NCBI GenBank assembly: GCA_937864035.1
Contig: CALMIO010000003.1
Span: forward strand, 14,673 to 78,672
Reading direction: 5' to 3'
DNA length: 64,000 nucleotides
Origin: an uncultured Pseudomonadota bacterium
GTDB taxonomy: Bacteria > Bdellovibrionota_C > UBA2361 > CALMIO01
Both the position numbers and the translations under genes were made by a program. Positions within the stretch are counted from its first letter, which is position 1, and the number at the start of each line of letters is the position of its first letter. The notes below the pieces were generated by a model. It did not search any database. It was not told the DNA's origin and saw nothing but the letters and a program-made list of their open reading frames with translations. Shown here in pieces: positions 5,257-37,764 of this stretch.

Positions 5257-5629
5257 AATCAGCTTCAGATGAAAGTTTTTTTGACTAAAGTTTCTTTTTG
5301 ATAAATTCTAATCAGGAGGAGACGGCTTTTTTGCCGAATCGAAAGATGGGAGTTTGGCGAAATAAAATCGAGACAATTTTCTGGCCTCAACTGTAAAACA
5401 GAGCACGTTGTTTTTTAAAATTATTTAGCAATTAGTTAAAGCTCCGGCAAAAAACTTCTTAATTTAGCAGTCTTTAGCTTACATCGCGACTTTAAATTCG
5501 ATAATCACCGATCAATAATTTTGCGAAGGGTCATGGGCTTTGCCCCGAACGGCGAAAACGACCCCTTCCGCGCTCAAGTTTGCGTGCTTGTCAGTGTCGG
5601 CAAATTTATTACTTTTGTTGACAAACTCT

Positions 5630-6472
5630 TTAAAAATCAGCAGTAATATCCTTTAAAATAGCTTCTTTTTGAGTTGTGCGCTCATTTTGATTGATTGTTT
5701 CCGTAGAGGAGTTCTTACTGCCTCCAACAATAGCCGCGCTCTTGTTATTATTAGTTTGAGCAGCTTGCTTCTGTTGCTCCTCGAATTGGGCGCGAGCGGA
5801 ATTTGATTGATCGGCTGTTTGATCAACAAATTGATCGGCTGTTTGATCAACAAATTGATCGGCTGTTTGATCAACAAAATTGCCAGTTTTTGTTTCAGCA
5901 TTACCGTTGAAATTTGCATTTTCTCTTGTTGGTGGTTGTTTAAAAGAGTTGCTTGCGCTCTCCTCGATCTTATTGCTATCGGAATTTCCACTATTGGAAT
6001 AGCTCACAGAGGAGGAAGCTATGATTTTGCGAGACGTCTCGGAATTGGAATTGGTGTCAAATGAATCTCCTCGCTTAACATTTCTATTGTCATTGATTGT
6101 GGTTGGTTCAAGCCAGCTTTTGGCTGTATTGATTGGTTGTTTGCGCTGATCGCTAGTGCCCATAAGGGGCATTGGGTCGGTTCTAACCGCATACTCAAGC
6201 GGCACCCTAATTATGTCTCCGACACGAAGTTTGTTTGCTGGAACAGCCGGATTGGCGTCAGCCAAAGTTTGCCACGAGGTTGTCTTGCCAAAATACCATT
6301 TTGCCATATTGGCGTAAGTGTCGCCCGGTCTGATTATGTGTTCGAGATACTGCTCGGTTAGTTCATTGTAGGTTGATTGTTTTGGGCGTTGCTTGTGGCA
6401 ATTTATTATAAATAATCCACAAAATATAATTATTGTTAAGGCGTGAAAGTATTTGAAGATTGAAAGTTGCAT
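5630..6472 (-). CDS. Secreted LysM-domain protein with low-complexity S/N/Q-rich tail and an internal tandem repeat
   Basis: N-terminal hydrophobic signal/anchor (LTIIIFCGLFIINC) and a LysM-like segment (IIRPGDTYANMAKWYFGKTTSWQTLADANPAVPANKLRVGDIIRVP). The repeat encodes FVDQTADQ x3. Confidence 0.8.
   Translation of the reverse strand: MQLSIFKYFHALTIIIFCGLFIINCHKQRPKQSTYNELTEQYLEHIIRPGDTYANMAKWYFGKTTSWQTLADANPAVPANKLRVGDIIRVPLEYAVRTDPMPLMGTSDQRKQPINTAKSWLEPTTINDNRNVKRGDSFDTNSNSETSRKIIASSSVSYSNSGNSDSNKIEESASNSFKQPPTRENANFNGNAETKTGNFVDQTADQFVDQTADQFVDQTADQSNSARAQFEEQQKQAAQTNNNKSAAIVGGSKNSSTETINQNERTTQKEAILKDITADF
5807..5878. repeat. Perfect 24-bp tandem repeat x3 (unit ttgatcggctgtttgatcaacaaa)
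   Basis: Read directly: three identical in-frame copies at 5807-5830, 5831-5854 and 5855-5878, with a partial fourth copy upstream. Each unit carries the 8-bp palindrome TTGATCAA and two GATC sites. It lies inside the LysM protein ORF. Confidence 0.92.
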
Positions 6473-6556
6473 AAATTTATAAAGAAGATTTCCTAAAATA
6501 TTATATCTCTTTTAATTGCCATAGCCTATAACTTTTGCGGCGTTGTTTCAAGAGAG

Positions 6557-7102
6557 TTATGTTTTCTGGTAAAAAACAAGCTCAGTTGAGCCATAACGCC
6601 TTTTTTCAATCTCACTAAAGGTTGCTAGACTTAGGATTTCATACTCTTGGGGATGTATCTGTGCTATAATTTTGCCTCTCTGATTGACTAGACTGGGGCG
6701 CTCGGCAATAGCTCTGACTGCTTCTATCCAAAGTCCTTTAAACTGAGGGGGGGCAATATATATATGGTCAAAACTATCTTTGCTTCTTTTGATGAAGGCA
6801 AAAGCATCCCCTTTAAAGATTGTGGCGTTGCTCTCTAGTTTAGTTTTGCGCAAATTACTAGCGATTGTTTCTTGGGCGGCACGCGCAATCTCAACGAATA
6901 TAACCTGCCGCGCTCCGCGGCTTAAAGCTTCAATTCCAACGCCGCCACTGCCGGCGAACAGATCCAAGAAGCGGGCATTTTCGATCTCTGGACTGAGGAT
7001 ATCAAACAGAGGAACTTTGACTCGATCTAATATTGGCCGTGTCGTTTCACCGGGTACTGAATTTAGTTTGATGCCTTTGGCTGTTCCGCCGATAACACGC
7101 AC
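6557..7102 (-). CDS. rsmD: 16S rRNA (guanine966-N2)-methyltransferase RsmD
   Basis: 181 aa with SAM-binding motif DLFAGSGGVGIEALSRGA and the N6-adenine/N2-guanine MTase motif (YIAPPQFKG, close to DPPY). Confidence 0.85.
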   Translation of the reverse strand: MRVIGGTAKGIKLNSVPGETTRPILDRVKVPLFDILSPEIENARFLDLFAGSGGVGIEALSRGARQVIFVEIARAAQETIASNLRKTKLESNATIFKGDAFAFIKRSKDSFDHIYIAPPQFKGLWIEAVRAIAERPSLVNQRGKIIAQIHPQEYEILSLATFSEIEKRRYGSTELVFYQKT

Positions 7103-7127
7103 GCGCTACTCGCTACACTAAATAAAG

Positions 7128-8456
7128 TTAATAAAGGGCGCGATTTAGATCCCATTTTTCAAGATAGTTTCTGATAAACGCCAAAAATCCTCCACCGAGA
7201 GCGCCATCAATAATTCTATGGTCGTAAGATAAAGTCAGATAGCACATTTCGCGAATGGCGATCATGTCGTCAACTACTACTGGACGTTTAACGATTGCTC
7301 CTAAACAGAGAATAGCAACTTGCGGTTGATTGATTATCGGTGTTCCGATCACCGTGCCAAAACCACCAACATTGGTAACTGTGAAAGTGCCTCCAACTAC
7401 ATCGTCCGGCATCAGTTTTTTATTGCGGGCTCTGGTTGCTAGATCGTTTAAATCTCTAGCGATTCCGACTAGAGTTTTCTCTTCGGCGCGTTTAATAACG
7501 GGCACGATTAAACCGCTTGTGCCAAGAGCGACCGCACAACCAAGATTGATGTGTCTTTTTAAAACTATATTCTTTCCATCAACTGAAGCGTTTAAAAATG
7601 GAAACTGCAAAATTCCTTTTACGGCCGCTTCAAGAAAGATCGGGGTAAAGCTTAAACTAAAACCTTCGCGCTCTTCGAAAGCTTGTTTGTTAGCCTTGCG
7701 CCAACGCGAGATGTTAGTAACATCAACTTCTTGGATTGAATAAACGTGAGGGCTTGTGTGCTTGGAGCGCACCATGTGTTCGGCAATAGCGGCTCGCATA
7801 TTATCCATCGGTACTATTTTTTGCACTTCACTCCCCCAGTCGATCTCTAAAATCGCGTTGGTTTGAGGAGTGTGTGCTGCCGCCCCAGATTCAACAGGCT
7901 TAACACTACCTCGTTGTTCCACATAGCTTGTTAAATCTTGTTTTGTAATTCGACCTCCACTGCCGCTACCAGTAATTTTGCCAAGTTCGGTGTCGCTTAA
8001 ATTGTGTTTTGCGGCAAGGCTTTTAACCAGGGGTGATATAAAACGAGTTGATTTGTGGTCGCTGCTGATCTGAACGACACCGCTAGCCTGCTGAGCCGGT
8101 GGCGCTGTCGTTTTTGTTATCTTAGCGCGTGAAGACTCCTCTTGCGGCACTTGGTTGACAGATTGTTTACTTTCAACTTTTTTAACGGAGTTGTTGTCAT
8201 CGGTTTTTGAGGCATTTGCTGATTCGCTGATAATAGCTATAACTTTTTTTACTGGAACAACATCTCCCTCCTTATAGAGAATCTCTGAGAGGTAACCAGA
8301 GGCCGGCGCTGGAATCTCAGAGTCAACTTTATCAGTTGAGATCTCTAAAATAACCTGATCGCGTTCAACCTTGTCTCCCGGCTTGACGCGCCATTTTAAG
8401 ATCTTTGCTTCTGTTATTGATTCGCCCATTTGAGGCATTACCATTTCGGTCGCCAT
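7128..8456 (-). CDS. Dihydrolipoamide acyltransferase (E2) of a 2-oxoacid dehydrogenase complex
   Basis: N-terminal lipoyl domain (EAKILKWRVKPGDKV...EISTDKV), a peripheral subunit-binding domain, and a C-terminal catalytic domain with DHRIIDGA. Confidence 0.9.
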   Translation of the reverse strand: MATEMVMPQMGESITEAKILKWRVKPGDKVERDQVILEISTDKVDSEIPAPASGYLSEILYKEGDVVPVKKVIAIISESANASKTDDNNSVKKVESKQSVNQVPQEESSRAKITKTTAPPAQQASGVVQISSDHKSTRFISPLVKSLAAKHNLSDTELGKITGSGSGGRITKQDLTSYVEQRGSVKPVESGAAAHTPQTNAILEIDWGSEVQKIVPMDNMRAAIAEHMVRSKHTSPHVYSIQEVDVTNISRWRKANKQAFEEREGFSLSFTPIFLEAAVKGILQFPFLNASVDGKNIVLKRHINLGCAVALGTSGLIVPVIKRAEEKTLVGIARDLNDLATRARNKKLMPDDVVGGTFTVTNVGGFGTVIGTPIINQPQVAILCLGAIVKRPVVVDDMIAIREMCYLTLSYDHRIIDGALGGGFLAFIRNYLEKWDLNRALY

Positions 8457-8486
8457 AGTAATAATTTGAATTTATTAAGAGTTTAG

Positions 8487-10574
8487 TTAAAATTTTAGCA
8501 GTTCTTCGAGCGCTTGGTAAAGAGTTTCGTTCTGGGGTAAGACGAATTTCTCAAGGTTGCCGGCATGCGGAATACCGGCCACGTCGAGCGCCGCCACCCG
8601 TTTTACCGGAGCGTCGAGCCAAGTAAAGCAGTTTTCCGAGATTTGAGCCGCTATTTCCGCTCCAAAACCCATAAAAGCAGTGTCTTCGTGGGCTATTAAA
8701 ACCCGAGAGGTTTTCATTAGGCTGTTAGCGATTGTTTCAAAATCTAATGGCAAAATAGTTCGAAGATCGATAACTTCGATTTCAGCTCCCATTTTTTCGG
8801 CGGCCTCCTTGGCTACTGTCAAAGCTTTGTTAACTAACGCTCCCCAAGTTACGATGGTTGCTGAATTTCCCGAGCGAACAACTTTGGCTTTGCCAAATGG
8901 CAACATCCAGTTATCATTTCCAATAACTCCTTTAGCGTAAACTTGTCTGTATAAGCCTTTGTGTTCCAAAAACAAAACCGGATCATTCATTCTGATAGCG
9001 GTTCTCAGTAATCCGGCGGCATCGGTCGCGTTTGATGGATAAGCGATATAGAGTCCCGGAAAGTGAGCAAAAGTCGCTTCAATATTTTGCGAGTGATAAA
9101 GTCCTCCGTGTATGTAACCACCGACGGGAACTCGAATAACCGCTGGCGCTGAAAAATCGCCGTTCGAGCGGAAACGGATCTGCGCCAGTTCATTTCTGAT
9201 CTGCATCATTGCTGTCCATATATAATCGCCAAACTGGATCTCGGCGATCGGTTTTATTCCGTAGGTGGCGGCTCCGATGGCGACACCGGCGATCGAGCTT
9301 TCCGCCAGTTGTGTGTTAAAACACCTTTCTTTTCCATGTTTGGTTGTCAAATTCGAGGTAACCGTGAAAACACCGCCTTTGCCACCGGCCACATCTTGGC
9401 CAAAGACAATTATTTCTGGATTTTTTTTCATCTCTTGATCGAGCACTTTGTTCAAAGCGTCAACTAAGAACAATTCTTCACCGCTTTCAGTTTGTTTTTC
9501 CTCAATTTTGAGCCAAGGATAGGGATCGTTGTAGTTTGATTCTTCCAAATCTTGTTCTTTAGGAAACGGTTGAGTTTCTGCCCATTCTGCGGCGAGATCT
9601 ATCTCTTTTTTAATCTTTTCTTCGAGTGTTTTAATTTTGTCGGTGCTGATGATTTTTTCTTTAAGTAGTTGCTCGCGTAATGATCCGATCGGGCAGAGTT
9701 TTTTTTCAGCGGCAAGCTCCCTTTCAGTTCGATACTTGAGGTGGTTATCGGAGATTGAATGGCTTTGAAGGCGCGCCATGTATGCTTCAACGAGCGCCGG
9801 ACCTTGACCGTTTGCCGCTTGTTGATAAGCTTTGCTGATTACCTTTAGAGTTTCACCGTAATTTGAGCCGTCAACTTCAAAACTTGTTAAGCCAGCGTAA
9901 CCGGAGACCATCTTGGCGACGCTTTTGCCCGGTATTTGATCTGATACCGGCACCGAAATCGCGAAACCGTTATTTTGGATCATAAAAACAATCGGAAGTT
10001 TTTCTCGTGCCGCCCAGTTAAGCGCTTCGTGAAAATCGCCTTGGGCGCATGCGCCTTCGCCGGCGGAGACGTAAACAACCTCTTTAGCTTTTTTGTATTT
10101 GATCGCCAACGCCATGCCAACTGCTTGGCAGAACTGGGTGCCGGTCGGCGAACTTTGAGCTACCACACGGAGTTTTTTATGTCCGTAATGGTTTGGCATC
10201 ATCCGTCCGTGCGAGTTTGGGTCATCTTCTTTATTTAAATTGCTGAGCATTATCTCGCGGTCGCTCATGCCGAGGGCGACGACCAGTGCGAGATCTCGAT
10301 AATATGGATAAAACCAATCTTTTCCGGCTTTGAAAACTTTTGCGGCGGCGACGCCAACGGCCTCATGGCCGGCACAGCCGATTTGAAAGTGACACTTGTT
10401 TTGTTTGTAAAGGACGATTGCTTTTTCGTCGAGAGCGCGAGCGCGAAACATAACTGCGTAGGCATCGATTAAAGATCTATCTCTCTCTAAAGTCGTTTTT
10501 TCTTTTGAGAGCTGTTTGCCGTGGCGTTTTGATTTTTCGCTTTTCGAGCCGTGTGTTTGGGCGATAAAGTTCAT
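8487..10574 (-). CDS. 2-oxoacid dehydrogenase E1 component, fused alpha-beta subunits (TPP-dependent)
   Basis: 695 aa. The N-terminal half is E1-alpha-like (TPP binding, GEGACAQGDFHEALN) and the C-terminal half is transketolase-like E1-beta. It lies directly upstream of E2. Confidence 0.9.
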   Translation of the reverse strand: MNFIAQTHGSKSEKSKRHGKQLSKEKTTLERDRSLIDAYAVMFRARALDEKAIVLYKQNKCHFQIGCAGHEAVGVAAAKVFKAGKDWFYPYYRDLALVVALGMSDREIMLSNLNKEDDPNSHGRMMPNHYGHKKLRVVAQSSPTGTQFCQAVGMALAIKYKKAKEVVYVSAGEGACAQGDFHEALNWAAREKLPIVFMIQNNGFAISVPVSDQIPGKSVAKMVSGYAGLTSFEVDGSNYGETLKVISKAYQQAANGQGPALVEAYMARLQSHSISDNHLKYRTERELAAEKKLCPIGSLREQLLKEKIISTDKIKTLEEKIKKEIDLAAEWAETQPFPKEQDLEESNYNDPYPWLKIEEKQTESGEELFLVDALNKVLDQEMKKNPEIIVFGQDVAGGKGGVFTVTSNLTTKHGKERCFNTQLAESSIAGVAIGAATYGIKPIAEIQFGDYIWTAMMQIRNELAQIRFRSNGDFSAPAVIRVPVGGYIHGGLYHSQNIEATFAHFPGLYIAYPSNATDAAGLLRTAIRMNDPVLFLEHKGLYRQVYAKGVIGNDNWMLPFGKAKVVRSGNSATIVTWGALVNKALTVAKEAAEKMGAEIEVIDLRTILPLDFETIANSLMKTSRVLIAHEDTAFMGFGAEIAAQISENCFTWLDAPVKRVAALDVAGIPHAGNLEKFVLPQNETLYQALEELLKF

Positions 10575-20621: not shown

Positions 20622-22274
20622 ATGTCAGCTGTACAATCTAGTACTAGTATTAGTAGGAAGATCCCACTGCCGATAGTTTCTTTTGTCGTTAATCAAGAAA
20701 AGGACTCAACTTTCAATTATTGGTTGCACAACGATCCGCCATTATTATCATTATTGAGTGATAGTTTTTTGGCATTTGCCGCTTGCGCACCCAGCTCTGC
20801 TGATCGCAAAGCTCTCTCTAGTTCGCTAATCGAAGATTTCAACCGGATGTTGTCAGCATTGATGGTCGCTTATCGACATTTAGAATTAAACAATAAAGAT
20901 ACTCAAGCTCCTTGTTTTGCCGCCGACATAGAAGCGGATCTACTGGAACACCCTTATTTGGTTCGCGATTTGCCCCGATTTAACAGAGATCTTTTCAAAA
21001 GCTATATTGAGCTTATACGAGAAAAACAGACTCCTCCACTTATAAAACTACTTTTTTTGGCAAGTTTATCTAACTGCGTGGATAAGATGGTTGATGAACA
21101 AGTATTTACAGATCGAAACATAAAAAAGATCTCAATCGCAGAAATTCAGAATGAAAAATCTCTTGCTAAAGCCGAGATGGTGTTGATTGAAGGATATCTT
21201 TTTTTTGTTCATAGTTTGTTTCAAACGAACGAATCGATCCGGGTATCTCGTTTAATGGAAAGAAATTTATTTATGGTTATTGCCGATCATACGATTGATG
21301 AAGATTTGCGTCTTAAAGCGGCTTCGCTTTTAATAGACCAAAACTATGATTTAACTGGCATTATTGATTCCTTATTAGGAGATTATGGCTCTGTTGCCGT
21401 CAATAGGCGAGGCGGCGCGGCGCGTCAACAATTTGCTAATCGCCATTTTGTTTATAAATTATTACTAATCTGCCCTGAAGAAAGGAGAAATTGCTCGGAG
21501 TTAATTACCTTAGAGCGATTAGCCGCCGAGCCCGATTTGTCGATCAAATTCAACATTGCCACTTTAATGCTTATAGATAAAAATGACACCGTTAATGAGT
21601 TGGCTAGATACCTTTATTATTTTGATCAATTTCATGATCAATCATCTAGTTTAGCGGCTTTTTCTAAACCAGATCTTTTCACTAAATATATTTTGTTTGG
21701 AGCAGTTGATAATAAGGAGAAAATCTCTGGCTTCTGGCAGCAAGAGCGTATTGAGTTTTTTGCCGATCAGTTAACACTTGATCAACAGTTTGGGGTCTAT
21801 AATTTTTTGCTGGCGGCGATCAACAATCATATGTCAAGAGGTTATTATTTCCCTTCATACAACGATCTTAAGCAGGAGGATTGGGTAGCACATTTTGAGG
21901 ATGCTATTAATATTATTCTCTCTTTAAATAAAATTAAAAATGAAGATTTATTTTTAGCGGGGTTATTTCGTCTCGCGATTAATACATATAGCTATGGTGT
22001 TTACCAACAATTTGGAAAAATTTCGAATTTTTTTACCGAGCTGGGTCTAAATCGGACTCGTCCTTGGATTAAAAATTATCTATTGCCCTTTGTTATTGAG
22101 CAGTTTAAGGGTGAGTATTCTCAAGCAATTTACAATCCAGAGATTGTTTATAAGGTGTTCATTGAGATTGCCAATACGCTTAATATGCCGGATGATTTGG
22201 TTGGGCCGGTTTATCAAGCGAAGGCTTATTATGATTCTTTGCAGGCAGGTCGAGTCAGATCAAGAAAGTCATAA
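20622..22274 (+). CDS. Hypothetical protein (550 aa), predicted all-alpha, no family recognised
   Basis: Long uninterrupted ORF flanked by AT-rich non-coding DNA (167 bp upstream, 415 bp downstream). No TM helices and no catalytic motifs recognised. Confidence 0.65.
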   Translation: MSAVQSSTSISRKIPLPIVSFVVNQEKDSTFNYWLHNDPPLLSLLSDSFLAFAACAPSSADRKALSSSLIEDFNRMLSALMVAYRHLELNNKDTQAPCFAADIEADLLEHPYLVRDLPRFNRDLFKSYIELIREKQTPPLIKLLFLASLSNCVDKMVDEQVFTDRNIKKISIAEIQNEKSLAKAEMVLIEGYLFFVHSLFQTNESIRVSRLMERNLFMVIADHTIDEDLRLKAASLLIDQNYDLTGIIDSLLGDYGSVAVNRRGGAARQQFANRHFVYKLLLICPEERRNCSELITLERLAAEPDLSIKFNIATLMLIDKNDTVNELARYLYYFDQFHDQSSSLAAFSKPDLFTKYILFGAVDNKEKISGFWQQERIEFFADQLTLDQQFGVYNFLLAAINNHMSRGYYFPSYNDLKQEDWVAHFEDAINIILSLNKIKNEDLFLAGLFRLAINTYSYGVYQQFGKISNFFTELGLNRTRPWIKNYLLPFVIEQFKGEYSQAIYNPEIVYKVFIEIANTLNMPDDLVGPVYQAKAYYDSLQAGRVRSRKS

Positions 22275-34965: not shown

Positions 34966-35799
34966 ATGGTAATTCCCCAAGAGACTTACTCTAAAGAGCT
35001 TTTTCCAAATGGTCGGTGGCTTTTATGTTGCCCTGATCATTATGGGATTAAGTACGAAATTAACCCATGGATGAATTTACAAAACACAGCTAATTCCAAG
35101 CTTGCTTGGTGTCAGTGGAAGGGGTTGCATCATGCGATTTTAAGGCTTGGTGGTTGGGTTGAATATGTTGAGCAATTTGAGTCGTCTCCTGATATGGTTT
35201 TTACCGCTAATGGTGGTTTGGTTTCTGGCAACACAGCTTTACTTGCTAAGTTTAAATACCCTGAAAGACGTGGTGAGGAGGCTGGTTTTAGAAAATGGTT
35301 TATAGAGCATGGATTTAATGTTGTTGAGCTTGGCACTGATGGTTATTTTGAAGGCGAGGGGGATGCTTTATTTGCCGGTGAAACTCTTTTTTGCGGTTAT
35401 GGTTTTAGATCGGACAAAGTTGTTTATTCGAAGGTTGCCGAGCTTTTGAAAATCAAGAAAATCATTTTATGTGAGCTTGTTGATCCTTATTTTTATCATT
35501 TAGATACCTGCTTTGCTCCGTTAAACGAGAGACAGGCTTTGATTTGGCCAAAAGCCTTTAGCCCTGAGTCGATCAAAAATATTGAAAAGGAGATTGAGCT
35601 TATTGCTGTTAGCGAAGCGGAGGCGCGACTTTTTTGTTGCAATCTAGTAGTATTAGGGAAGGGGGTTATTTTACCGGCTGGCGCCGAACTGGTAGCGGCG
35701 GAGCTTGGCAGAAGGGGGTTCGAGCCGCATCAAGTCGAGCTTTCGGAATTTATCAAGGCTGGCGGAGCGGCTAAATGTTTGACTTTAAGGCTTGGTTAG
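34966..35799 (+). CDS. Amidinotransferase-superfamily protein (DDAH/arginine-deiminase-like fold)
   Basis: 277 aa with a C-terminal catalytic-Cys motif (GGAAKCLTLRL) and internal HLDT and D/E blocks typical of the guanidino-modifying enzyme superfamily. It starts 18 bp after rpoC. Confidence 0.7.
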   Translation: MVIPQETYSKELFPNGRWLLCCPDHYGIKYEINPWMNLQNTANSKLAWCQWKGLHHAILRLGGWVEYVEQFESSPDMVFTANGGLVSGNTALLAKFKYPERRGEEAGFRKWFIEHGFNVVELGTDGYFEGEGDALFAGETLFCGYGFRSDKVVYSKVAELLKIKKIILCELVDPYFYHLDTCFAPLNERQALIWPKAFSPESIKNIEKEIELIAVSEAEARLFCCNLVVLGKGVILPAGAELVAAELGRRGFEPHQVELSEFIKAGGAAKCLTLRLG

Positions 35800-36320
35800 T
35801 GAATAAAAGACCCACAAAACAAGACTTCTTAAACAGCATTTTTAAAAATTATCTTGTGTTCCGTGAAAAATTATTGGAAAGCTGACTAGAGGGTAGAAAA
35901 AACTCTAAAAGGCGATCGAATATAATGCAAGAAATTTGCAGAAAAAGACTATAAGCCTTGCAAAAGTAATTGAACCAAAATAGTCGGAACGTGGGCATAC
36001 TTTCCAGTTTCAAAGAGAGTTAAGAGCAAAGGGGGCTAATTGGCAGGTAAAACGGTTTGGGGTCGGTTTGCAAGGAAGTTTGAAGAGCGTTGCGGCGGTG
36101 AGAAAGAAGAAAAAAACGGACCGCTCCCCTTGGACGTTGCGAGGCGAGAACGATGAGGGAGATATATATGGAGAGATATATATAAAGCCTGCCTATATTT
36201 GAATCTTCAGTGAAAAATCACCCTTTTTTATAGTGCCACCCTCTTTTAATTGATTTTAAAGGATAATCAATATAAGCCAAAAATTTAGAAAACCTTTTAA
36301 AAACAGGGTGGCGCTATTAA

Positions 36321-36581
36321 CTAAAAAGTCCCAGTGGTTGTTGTAGTATGAAAGTCGCGATCCATAACAGTTTTGCGACCCTCTTTTTTGGCGTTTTCTA
36401 TCGCCTTTAAACACTCTTTACGAACAATATTTGATAATATCTCCGCTACGCTGGCTGATGTGTTCATACCAGAAGCTGTTTTAACGAAGCTTTTGAGTTT
36501 TGAAACTACAACTAAGATGTCTTTGCTAGTTGTTCCGCCTGCCTCGCCAACTCTTACGTTATTGGTTGCTGTTTGATCCAT
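36321..36581 (-). CDS. Small histone-fold protein (bacterial histone, DUF1931/HBb-like)
   Basis: 86 aa. AAGGAG lies 8 nt upstream of ATG at 36581. The core (ILVVVSKLKSFVKTASGMNTSASVAEILSNIVRKECLKAIENAKKEGRKTVMDRDF) aligns with archaeal HMfB (ARITLAKILEEMGRDIASEAIKLARHAGRKTIKAEDI). It shares the loop-2 RKT motif plus downstream Asp. It also matches the singlet histone fold I recall for Bdellovibrio Bd0055 and Aquifex Aq_328. Confidence 0.6.
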   Translation of the reverse strand: MDQTATNNVRVGEAGGTTSKDILVVVSKLKSFVKTASGMNTSASVAEILSNIVRKECLKAIENAKKEGRKTVMDRDFHTTTTTGTF

Positions 36582-36868
36582 ATCCTGACTCTCCTTAATA
36601 AGTTAAAATTGAGTTTATAAAAAATAAAAGAGATATTTAAAGCTAGTTCAACTTATATCCTCTTTTCAAAGGCTATCCTTATAGCATCCAACTTTTGGCT
36701 TTTAAAGTCAAAGAAAATCGTAAGTACCTAATTTGACTATTTTTTTGTTAATATAGATTTTTACTATATGTTTAATATCTTTGATTATAGAGAGTTTTAA
36801 ATTACCCTCTAACTCTGCTAAGTTACTCTGATTAAGAATTCTTTGTATATTACAGTTTATATACGAGA

Positions 36869-36898
36869 TTGACAGGATAAGTATTACTTAAATATCAA
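36869..36898 (+). promoter_or_regulatory. Candidate sigma70-type promoter upstream of accD (TTGACA, 17-18 nt spacer, TATCAA)
   Basis: TTGACA at 36869-36874 and TATCAA at 36893-36898. It sits very close to the accD ATG (36910), implying a near-leaderless transcript. This is a by-eye call only. Confidence 0.2.
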
Positions 36899-36909
36899 TT
36901 TTTTAAATT

Positions 36910-37764
36910 ATGGGATGGTTTACTAGAAGCAAAGCGCCTAAACCAGTAGCTGAAGTTTCCGAACGAGACACGCTACTTGATGATGTTTGGACAAAGTGCC
37001 CGGGGTGCGAAGTAATCACCTTTACCAAAGAGCTTAAAAAAAGCATCGGAGTTTGTCCTAAATGTAATTACCATTTTAGGTTAACGGCGTCTCAACGAAT
37101 ACCTCTATTAACCGACAGACACTCTTTTGTCGAACTCGATTACGATCTTCAGTCAACCGATCCACTTAATTTTAAAGATAGCAAACGTTACAAAGAGCGA
37201 CTAAAAAGAGCCGCCAAAGCGAGTGAATCACCAGAAGCCGTGCGCACCGGAAAAGCTCGTATAAACAATATACCAGTAATGCTGGGGGTTTTTGAGTTTG
37301 GTTTTATGGGCGGTAGTATGGGATCGGTAGTTGGTGAAAAATTGACTAGAATGATTGAAATTGGCATCGAGGAAAAAAAGCCAGTTATTATAGTTTCCGC
37401 CTCTGGCGGCGCCCGAATGCAAGAGGGGATTTATTCTCTAATGCAAATGGCGAAAGTTAGTGCGGCACTAGCAAAACTTGGGTCAAACCATTTGCCTTAC
37501 ATCTCTGTTCTTACCGATCCAACCACTGGCGGCGTTGCCGCTTCTTTTGCTATGTTAGGCGATATAATTATTGCCGAACCTAAGGCGTTAATAGGGTTTG
37601 CTGGTCCGCGAGTGATTGAGCAAACAATCAGACAAAAATTGCCGGAGGGTTTTCAGCGAGCTGAGTTTCTTTTGGAACATGGAATTATAGATAGGATAGT
37701 TCAACGCGCTGATATGAAAGATGAGTTGACAATAATTCTAAAAAATCTTGGGTTTTCTGCTTAG
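36910..37764 (+). CDS. accD: Acetyl-CoA carboxylase carboxyltransferase subunit beta
   Basis: N-terminal Zn ribbon (CPGCEVITFTKELKKSIGVCPKCNYH) and a crotonase-fold carboxyltransferase domain (GGSMGSVVGEK; SGGARMQEG). Confidence 0.95.
   Translation: MGWFTRSKAPKPVAEVSERDTLLDDVWTKCPGCEVITFTKELKKSIGVCPKCNYHFRLTASQRIPLLTDRHSFVELDYDLQSTDPLNFKDSKRYKERLKRAAKASESPEAVRTGKARINNIPVMLGVFEFGFMGGSMGSVVGEKLTRMIEIGIEEKKPVIIVSASGGARMQEGIYSLMQMAKVSAALAKLGSNHLPYISVLTDPTTGGVAASFAMLGDIIIAEPKALIGFAGPRVIEQTIRQKLPEGFQRAEFLLEHGIIDRIVQRADMKDELTIILKNLGFSA

Follow-up and report, generated by a model that had tools for sequence, protein, structure and literature searches.

Bd0055 (HBb) of Bdellovibrio bacteriovorus HD100 (UniProt Q6MRM1) is the type member of the 'bacterial dimer' α3 histones. 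In the α3-truncated class, α3 is 3-4 residues long and α2 falls 4-5 residues short of its nucleosomal counterpart (Schwab et al. 2024, PMC11390915), and HBb accordingly has a shortened α2 and an α3 of one turn (PMC11317129). Two modes of DNA engagement have been described for HBb: an HU/IHF-like mode in which the DNA is bent (Hu et al. 2024, PMC11317129), and a filament mode in which dimers, one every 2.5 bp, densely coat straight DNA (Hocher et al. 2023, PMC10627809). The short N terminus of HBb touches neighbouring dimers in the filament crystal. Homologues of Bd0055 are present in 67% of Bdellovibrionota genomes, and the mutations A48H, S45F and I61L turn the protein into a DNA wrapper (both PMC10627809). 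[quoted passage not shown] A further bacterial histone-fold protein, Aq_328 of Aquifex aeolicus, is a pseudodimeric doublet with two folds per chain (PMC12701072).

The gene described here occupies 36321..36581 on the minus strand of a 64-kb window, the window being the whole stretch of DNA analysed. It is read from the ORF list and the sequence as 86 codons for amino acids, begins with ATG and ends in TAG (36321-36323), and its translation is identical to the sequence quoted in the initial annotation. The canonical ribosome-binding site claimed there is present as AAGGAG at 36596-36591, 9 nt 5' of the ATG. The most probable reading, to which we assign roughly 85%, is that its product is one of the HBb (Bd0055) bacterial 'dimer' α3-truncated histones, in an uncultured Oligoflexia bacterium, homodimer formation included. 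The features of the locus are as follows.

36321..36581, minus strand: complete CDS of a probable HBb/Bd0055-type singlet histone (ORF list; exact protein in three assemblies).
36591..36596, minus strand: Shine-Dalgarno sequence AAGGAG (sequence read).
36522..36581, minus strand: N-terminal extension, residues 1-20, MDQTATNNVRVGEAGGTTSK, predicted to be disordered, net charge 0.
36351..36521, minus strand: predicted histone-fold core, residues 21-77 (AF2, Foldseek, gapless HBb alignment).
36471-36506, minus strand: predicted α1, residues 26-37 (AF2 model).
Residues 38-42, minus strand: predicted loop L1 (AF2 model).
36384-36455, minus strand: predicted α2, residues 43-66 (AF2 model).
Residues 67-73, minus strand: predicted loop L2, including R69-K70-T71 (AF2 model).
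Residues 74-77, minus strand: predicted truncated α3 (AF2 model).
36324..36350, minus strand: C-terminal tail, residues 78-86, HTTTTTGTF, Thr-rich, predicted to be disordered.
36227..36320, minus strand: inverted repeat with 21-nt arms (36300-36320 and 36227-36247), 86% complementary, with 52 nt between them.
36582..36909, no strand: divergent intergenic region common to accD, 328 bp, 23-25% GC (composition profile).
35800..36320, no strand: gap of 521 bp that separates the histone gene from the convergent DDAH-like gene.

The GC content of the gene (0.38-0.42) lies close to that of the window (0.42). A spurious ORF was considered and is ruled out by conservation, since 320 homologues and 11 invariant alignment columns accompany the protein. 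Between M1 and M39 there is no ATG, GTG or TTG in frame, and M39 is already past α1; a complete fold therefore requires that the 20 N-terminal residues be translated as well.

In a phmmer search against all PDB chains, HBb/Bd0055 ranks first (8CMP, 8FVX; also 9EZZ and 9F0E) with an E-value of 5e-13, and the alignment spans residues 21-77 without a gap. BLASTP against HBb gives 28 identical residues out of 57 (49%) with 68% positives. A profile was built from the alignment of the 117 closest homologues, and with this profile the PDB search returns HBb at 6e-25, HLp at 2.5e-10, HTkC at 6e-9 and HMfB at 0.03. Similarity to histones at this level far exceeds chance. The bacterial dimers are a category defined by sequence clustering; for the present protein HBb is the best PDB match and FtF HLp, at 2.5e-10, represents the next group. 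The features that define FtF, nucleosomal and DUF1931 histones are lacking. The initial annotation had likened the protein to the singlet bacterial histone Bd0055, and this likeness is borne out by sequence, predicted structure and family-defining residues alike. Its parallel suggestion of kinship with Aq_328 and DUF1931 is rejected: the single sequence scores 14.1 bits against the DUF1931 model (PF09123), below the cutoff of 21.8, and the family profile retrieves no PDB match to Aq_328, a doublet, even at E <= 10.

In a collection of 5.8 billion proteins, 320 sequences are homologous at E <= 1e-3. At least 507 relatives come from a scan of 185,579 species-representative genomes, and an exhaustive profile search among 1.84 billion representatives returns 544 clusters (50% identity) at E <= 1e-10. 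The best 80 of the at least 507 relatives belong mostly to Bdellovibrionota, with some from Planctomycetota, Chlamydiota, Myxococcota and others. The HBb family is uncommon among bacteria and expected in Bdellovibrionota. The exact protein (P0001) carries the NCBI label 'hypothetical protein PKD37_00200 [Oligoflexia bacterium]', and its locus shows no difference over 6.3 kb among three assemblies (GCA_035324815.1, GCA_035324065.1 and ERZ794913), two of which are metagenome-assembled genomes of Oligoflexia, a class of Bdellovibrionota. The public label may be explained by the sub-threshold scores of the single sequence, which reaches 15.4 bits against a cutoff of 21.4 for Pfam CBFD_NFYB_HMF (PF00808; E 0.022) and 22.8 bits against a cutoff of 50 for NCBIfam archaea_histone (NF043032). 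The refuting condition set in the initial annotation, no significant profile hit to histone-fold families and a predicted structure without the fold, does not overturn the reading: the single sequence stays below threshold for both Pfam families, whereas 109 of the 117 closest relatives match CBFD_NFYB_HMF at E < 0.1 and the predicted structure has the helix-strand-helix form of a histone.

The AlphaFold2 model, computed from the 117-sequence alignment, consists of three helices (residues 26-37, 43-66 and 74-77), and the block-mean pLDDT across residues 21-70 is 94-97. The two ends are predicted with far lower values, the mean pLDDT being 62 for residues 1-10, 52 for residues 11-20 and 54 for residues 81-86; residues 12-17 fall below 50. 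A tandem-copy fold calculated without an alignment gave an uninformative model (pLDDT 46, pTM 0.31). In a Foldseek search of the PDB, the top five matches of the monomer model are all HBb chains, with target-normalised TM scores of 0.90-0.96 and rmsd values of 0.7-0.9 Å, followed by HTkC and HLp (TM 0.86-0.91) and then by the archaeal nucleosomal histones. The predicted α2 has 24 residues and α3 has 4, lengths that place the protein in the α3-truncated class. The helix-2 and loop-2 boundaries of the initial annotation agree with the model to a residue or two (α2 43-66, L2 67-73, α3 74-77).

An HMf-like archaeal nucleosomal histone, assembling into tetramers or hypernucleosomes that wrap DNA, was implied by the earlier alignment to HMfB, which had been described as matching residue for residue. 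Such a match holds for residues 44-76, the second half of the fold, and fails for the fold as a whole. These are also the only residues matched by the two archaeal-histone models (PF00808 and NF043032), and both matches lie under the curated cutoffs, although the RKT motif and the RD clamp are common to the two proteins. The model points away from this type of histone: compared with HMfB, α2 lacks about one turn and α3 amounts to one turn, 4 residues against approximately 10, so the protein is α3-truncated and not an HMf-type nucleosomal histone. Superposition on HMfB gives a TM score of 0.70 and an rmsd of 1.8 Å, compared with 0.94 and 0.9 Å for HBb (9ezz_A), and the position of the tetramerisation histidine is taken by K66. 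We regard a nucleosomal, HMf-like identity as having next to no probability.

The residues that define the HBb family can be followed directly, as a position in HBb plus 18 gives the position in this protein. Eleven columns are invariant across the 117 relatives: K28, K30, A60, A64, R69, K70, T71, V72, M73, R75 and D76. The RKTxxxxD motif reads R69-K70-T71-V72-M73-D74-R75-D76, in which every residue is invariant but D74, itself at least 90% conserved in the same set. The putative RD clamp, R51-D58 in HBb, corresponds to R69-D76, and the auxiliary acid D49 corresponds to E67. The ten main DNA-contact residues of HBb are N22, R57, S9, T53, T8, S24, K10, K12, K52 and K16 (PMC11317129), and nine of them are kept here as N40, R75, S27, T71, S42, K28, K30, K70 and K34; the sole change among the ten is T8 to V26. 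The three α1 lysines in this set, K10, K12 and K16 of HBb, are K28, K30 and K34, the first two of which belong to the invariant columns. The hydrophobic dimer interface of HBb, formed by V11, L31, I35, L38 and I59, corresponds to L29, L49, V53, E56 and F77, and the column containing L38 and E56 is variable across the family. The calculated pI of the core is 9.6 and its net charge is +4, a basic character in keeping with a DNA binder. Predicted monomer fold, sequence and family-defining residues all match HBb.

The closest neighbouring group is that of the FtF histones, and an FtF α3 histone like HLp or HTkC would form a torus-shaped tetramer wrapping about 60 bp. The truncated α2/α3 fold is common to both groups, HLp and HTkC are the next-best matches in structure and in sequence, FtF histones are known in Bdellovibrionota from the class Bacteriovoracia, and their bacterial members often have N-terminal tails (PMC11390915). 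The E-value of the profile for HBb is nevertheless 15 orders of magnitude better than that for HLp. At the FtF interface, R(-6) and N(-2) are replaced by N63 and E67, so the signature of that group is missing, and the lysine of the RKT motif, which is weak among FtF histones and a conserved residue of the bacterial dimers (PMC11390915), is present as K70. The N-terminal tail is non-basic here, unlike most FtF tails. An FtF assembly is therefore very unlikely. The positions equivalent to A48, S45 and I61 of Bd0055, at which the wrapping mutations were made, are K66, N63 and T79.

By analogy with HBb, the protein would most likely act in the nucleoid as a homodimer that binds DNA without regard to sequence. 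As suggested by the crystal structures and biophysics of HBb, two copies would associate head to tail into an obligate handshake homodimer. Each end of the dimer would present a paired L1/L2 surface, with N40-T41-S42 contributed by one chain and K70-T71 together with R75 by the other, and the first turn of α1 (S27, K28, K30 and K34) would add to this DNA-contact surface. The contacts would be made to backbone phosphates across the minor groove, with no sequence specificity. As the residues of both the FtF and the archaeal tetramer interfaces are missing, the dimer should not form a DNA-wrapping tetramer or hypernucleosome. It would either bend DNA locally in the manner of HU/IHF or cover straight DNA in a dense filament. 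Following HBb further, it may be abundant and nucleoid-associated, with a monocistronic transcription unit of its own.

On one side of the gene lie nusG-rplK-rplA-rplJ-rplL-rpoB-rpoC and a DDAH-like gene, and on the other accD-lptD and sugar-nucleotide genes. The initial annotation had described a gene standing alone in a housekeeping neighbourhood. The 521-bp gap and the spacer on the accD side are confirmed; the housekeeping neighbourhood is not conserved and proves uninformative. Within 4 kb of the best 80 of the at least 507 related loci, accD, lptD, rpoC and the DDAH-like gene are found in none (0/80), hence the rpoBC/accD context is incidental and carries no information, and a functional linkage to the neighbouring genes is rejected. 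Three homologues whose contigs were inspected sit in unrelated contexts; at these three loci and at the present one, the gene stands alone between intergenic gaps of approximately 150-600 bp. A second histone paralogue is absent from the 64-kb window, in which the family HMM, run against all six-frame fragments, matches this gene only.

The flanks carry few recognisable signals. The gap 35800-36320 contains no ORF of at least 60 aa and no Rfam match; the whole window has no Rfam match at gathering thresholds and no tRNAs, and a search of 35750-36950 in E-value mode returns chance-level eukaryotic families only. Directly after the stop codon begins the inverted repeat 36227-36320, which may be the 3' stem-loop of the histone mRNA and is statistically unremarkable: the folding stability exceeds that of shuffled sequences neither for 36180-36330 (z -1.26) nor for 36020-36215 (z -0.52). 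A canonical intrinsic terminator was considered for this repeat and rejected, the terminator scan having found none at the gene. A close homologue (L084) has a textbook terminator. The divergent region 36582..36909 presumably holds the promoters of both the histone gene and accD. A σ70 consensus scan finds no site 5' of the histone gene and none in 36582-36909, and the sole promoter-like match, 36280-36253 on the minus strand, lies downstream of the gene.

Codon usage gives a CAI of 0.635 relative to rplK/A/J/L, rank 28 of 45, which is a weak test given the small reference set; 58% of random 85-codon segments reach this value or more. The high expression suggested in the initial annotation is an expectation carried over from HBb; codon usage and promoter scan are without signal. 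Average codon usage would suit a protein that has the histone fold but serves a specialised purpose at low abundance, such as regulation or bridging between other proteins. Against such a role stand the alignment to Bd0055 itself, the retention of 9/10 DNA-contact residues and of the RD clamp, the strong constraint on the core, with its 11 invariant columns in 117 sequences, and the basic character of that core (pI 9.6, net charge +4). Bd3044, by its description, is a longer and less conserved protein; the present one is neither. A specialised role is unlikely, and a general nucleoid histone of the HBb type remains the preferred reading.

The disordered non-basic tails are the only feature here that goes beyond the type member HBb. 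Among the 117 closest relatives, the N-terminal extensions are non-homologous and rich in E, T, S and N, and those of at least 8 residues have a net charge of 0 to -5 in all but one case. The C-terminal tails of the same relatives range from 0 to 23 residues and are rich in A, T, S and P, often with runs of Thr. Basic tails, in contrast, are found on the histones of eukaryotes and Asgard archaea and on bacterial FtF histones (PMC11390915). No description of non-basic tails on bacterial dimer histones was found in the literature searched. Absent from HBb, these tails could alter oligomerisation or DNA binding. They might be sites of Ser/Thr phosphorylation or glycosylation, act in auto-inhibition, or provide a spacing that tunes dimer-dimer packing on DNA. 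That they mark a non-basic-tailed HBb subgroup, with the tails serving as regulatory modules, is a speculative proposal to which we attach a low probability; if true, regulation through histone tails would have a counterpart in bacteria that evolved independently.

Beyond annotation, the identification matters little: a 'hypothetical protein' label is corrected to that of a probable HBb-type histone. It adds an example from the class Oligoflexia to a family that has been experimentally characterised only in Bdellovibrio bacteriovorus. The tail-bearing variants are, in addition, natural constructs for asking if the choice between filament formation and DNA bending depends on the N terminus, a question left by the two structural studies of HBb.

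Among the known systems, the most distant are Aq_328 and DUF1931 (PF09123), which resemble the present protein only at the level of the histone-fold superfamily; here a single fold is contained in 86 aa. With the archaeal HMfA and HMfB (PF00808, 1A7W), the protein has in common the second half of α2, the GRKT of L2 and the start of α3 with the RD clamp, as well as, by analogy, handshake dimerisation. HMfB differs in an α2 that is one turn longer, a full-length α3, a His49-based tetramer interface and the formation of hypernucleosomes; the identity is 20-25% and the profile E-value only 0.03. The FtF histones HLp (Leptospira perolatii, 9QT0-2) and HTkC (Thermococcus kodakarensis, 9F2C) are closer, with the same α3-truncated fold (rmsd 1.1-1.2 Å), an RxTxxxxD motif and, in many bacterial members, tails. 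Their identity to the present protein is 30-38%, and as the FtF tetramer-interface residues are absent, neither a torus nor a wrapping of roughly 60 bp is expected.

HBb is the nearest counterpart. The two proteins have in common RKTVM-x-RD with the RD clamp, the MNTS loop L1 and the S-K-x-K-x-x-x-K pattern of α1; both are without tetramerisation residues, come from the same phylum and are encoded by a stand-alone gene. Unlike HBb, whose N terminus extends by about 2-4 residues, the present protein has a 20-residue non-basic N-terminal extension and a 9-residue Thr-rich C-terminal tail. V26 and E56 replace T8 and L38, and α1 has fewer lysines because the positions of K13 and K18 are S31 and A36. 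The host belongs to Oligoflexia rather than Bdellovibrionia. In conclusion, this protein is, with the probability given above, an uncharacterised addition to a histone family that was described in 2023-2024, and its host belongs to the phylum in which that family is commonest.

The HBb-type family, to which the 86-aa histone at 36321-36581 (minus strand) belongs, is under-detected by curated profile libraries. The precomputed Pfam annotation is blank in nearly all of the 120 homologues listed, and PF00808 (the CBFD_NFYB_HMF histone profile) gives sub-threshold or marginal matches in 109 of the 117 closest homologues, the set aligned for the comparisons below. A profile search with the family itself recovers, besides singlets, P0121, P0123 and P0127 (126-149 aa) and P0122 (274 aa). 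Among such matches are chains that carry two tandem HBb-type folds, and P0121 looks like a duplicated singlet of the P0017 type. Others are longer fusions with Cys-rich N-terminal regions, which may be what Schwab et al. call ZZ histones.

Within the fold, the position matching the dimer-interface residue L38 of HBb (Bd0055 of Bdellovibrio bacteriovorus) is occupied by a glutamate, E56 (window 36414-36416). In the alignment, most relatives carry L, A, Q or W in this column; the glutamate recurs in P0035 and P0055, which have the surrounding motif 'ECLKAIENA' in common with the query.

The surroundings of the gene contain the following features:

20622-22274, plus strand: 550-aa ORF between the HerA-like ATPase gene and nusG
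34966-35799, plus strand: DDAH/amidinotransferase-like gene (PF19420, E 7e-13)
36000-36215: GC-richer stretch in the 521-bp gap between the DDAH-like and histone genes, 45-51% GC versus ~30% on both sides
36158-36181: tandem GGAGAGATATAT x2, inside the same gap
36227-36247 and 36300-36320: arms of a 21-nt inverted repeat, 86% complementary, with a 52-nt loop, starting at the first base after the histone stop codon

The inverted repeat has a fold z-score of -1.26, and since no T-run follows it (36227-36320), it is not a canonical terminator. Further into the gap, the plus strand of the GC-richer stretch is strongly purine-rich, with a GC skew of up to +0.37 and an AT skew of up to +0.23; 36000-36215 has neither an Rfam match nor a stable fold. 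Beyond the gap, the DDAH-like gene starts 18 bp after rpoC and apparently lies in one transcription unit with it. Such a gene is an unusual tail for an rpoBC operon. For the 550-aa ORF, no Pfam match was found at E <= 1e-5.

Among 81 related loci, the sole recurrent neighbour found is a gene for an FKBP-type peptidyl-prolyl isomerase. In 13 of them (L007, L008, L011, L021, L038, L041, L043, L044, L051, L058, L063, L072 and L076) it immediately precedes the histone gene in the same orientation, ~350-540 bp upstream of that gene's centre, and its product looks like a lipoprotein; the window contains no FKBP-type isomerase gene. The histone gene of P0003, the closest long-contig homologue, has a textbook intrinsic terminator at ~5290-5345 of its locus L084. 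Its neighbours, within 5858-10255, are a gene for bacteriorhodopsin and a cluster of carotenoid genes (amino-oxidase/crtI-like, SQS_PSY, lycopene cyclase and BCD).

Disordered, non-basic tails are frequent in the HBb-type histones near the query, whose own tails are encoded at 36522-36581 (N-terminal) and 36324-36350 (C-terminal). Across the 117 aligned homologues, the N-terminal extensions are rich in E, T, S and N, with a median length of 8 aa and at least 15 residues in 20 proteins; those of at least 8 residues carry a net charge of 0 to -5, with one exception. The C-terminal tails (median 6 aa, maximum 23) are rich in A, T, S and P and include poly-Thr runs. In this they differ from eukaryotic, Asgard and face-to-face (FtF, alpha3-truncated) histones, whose tails are basic.
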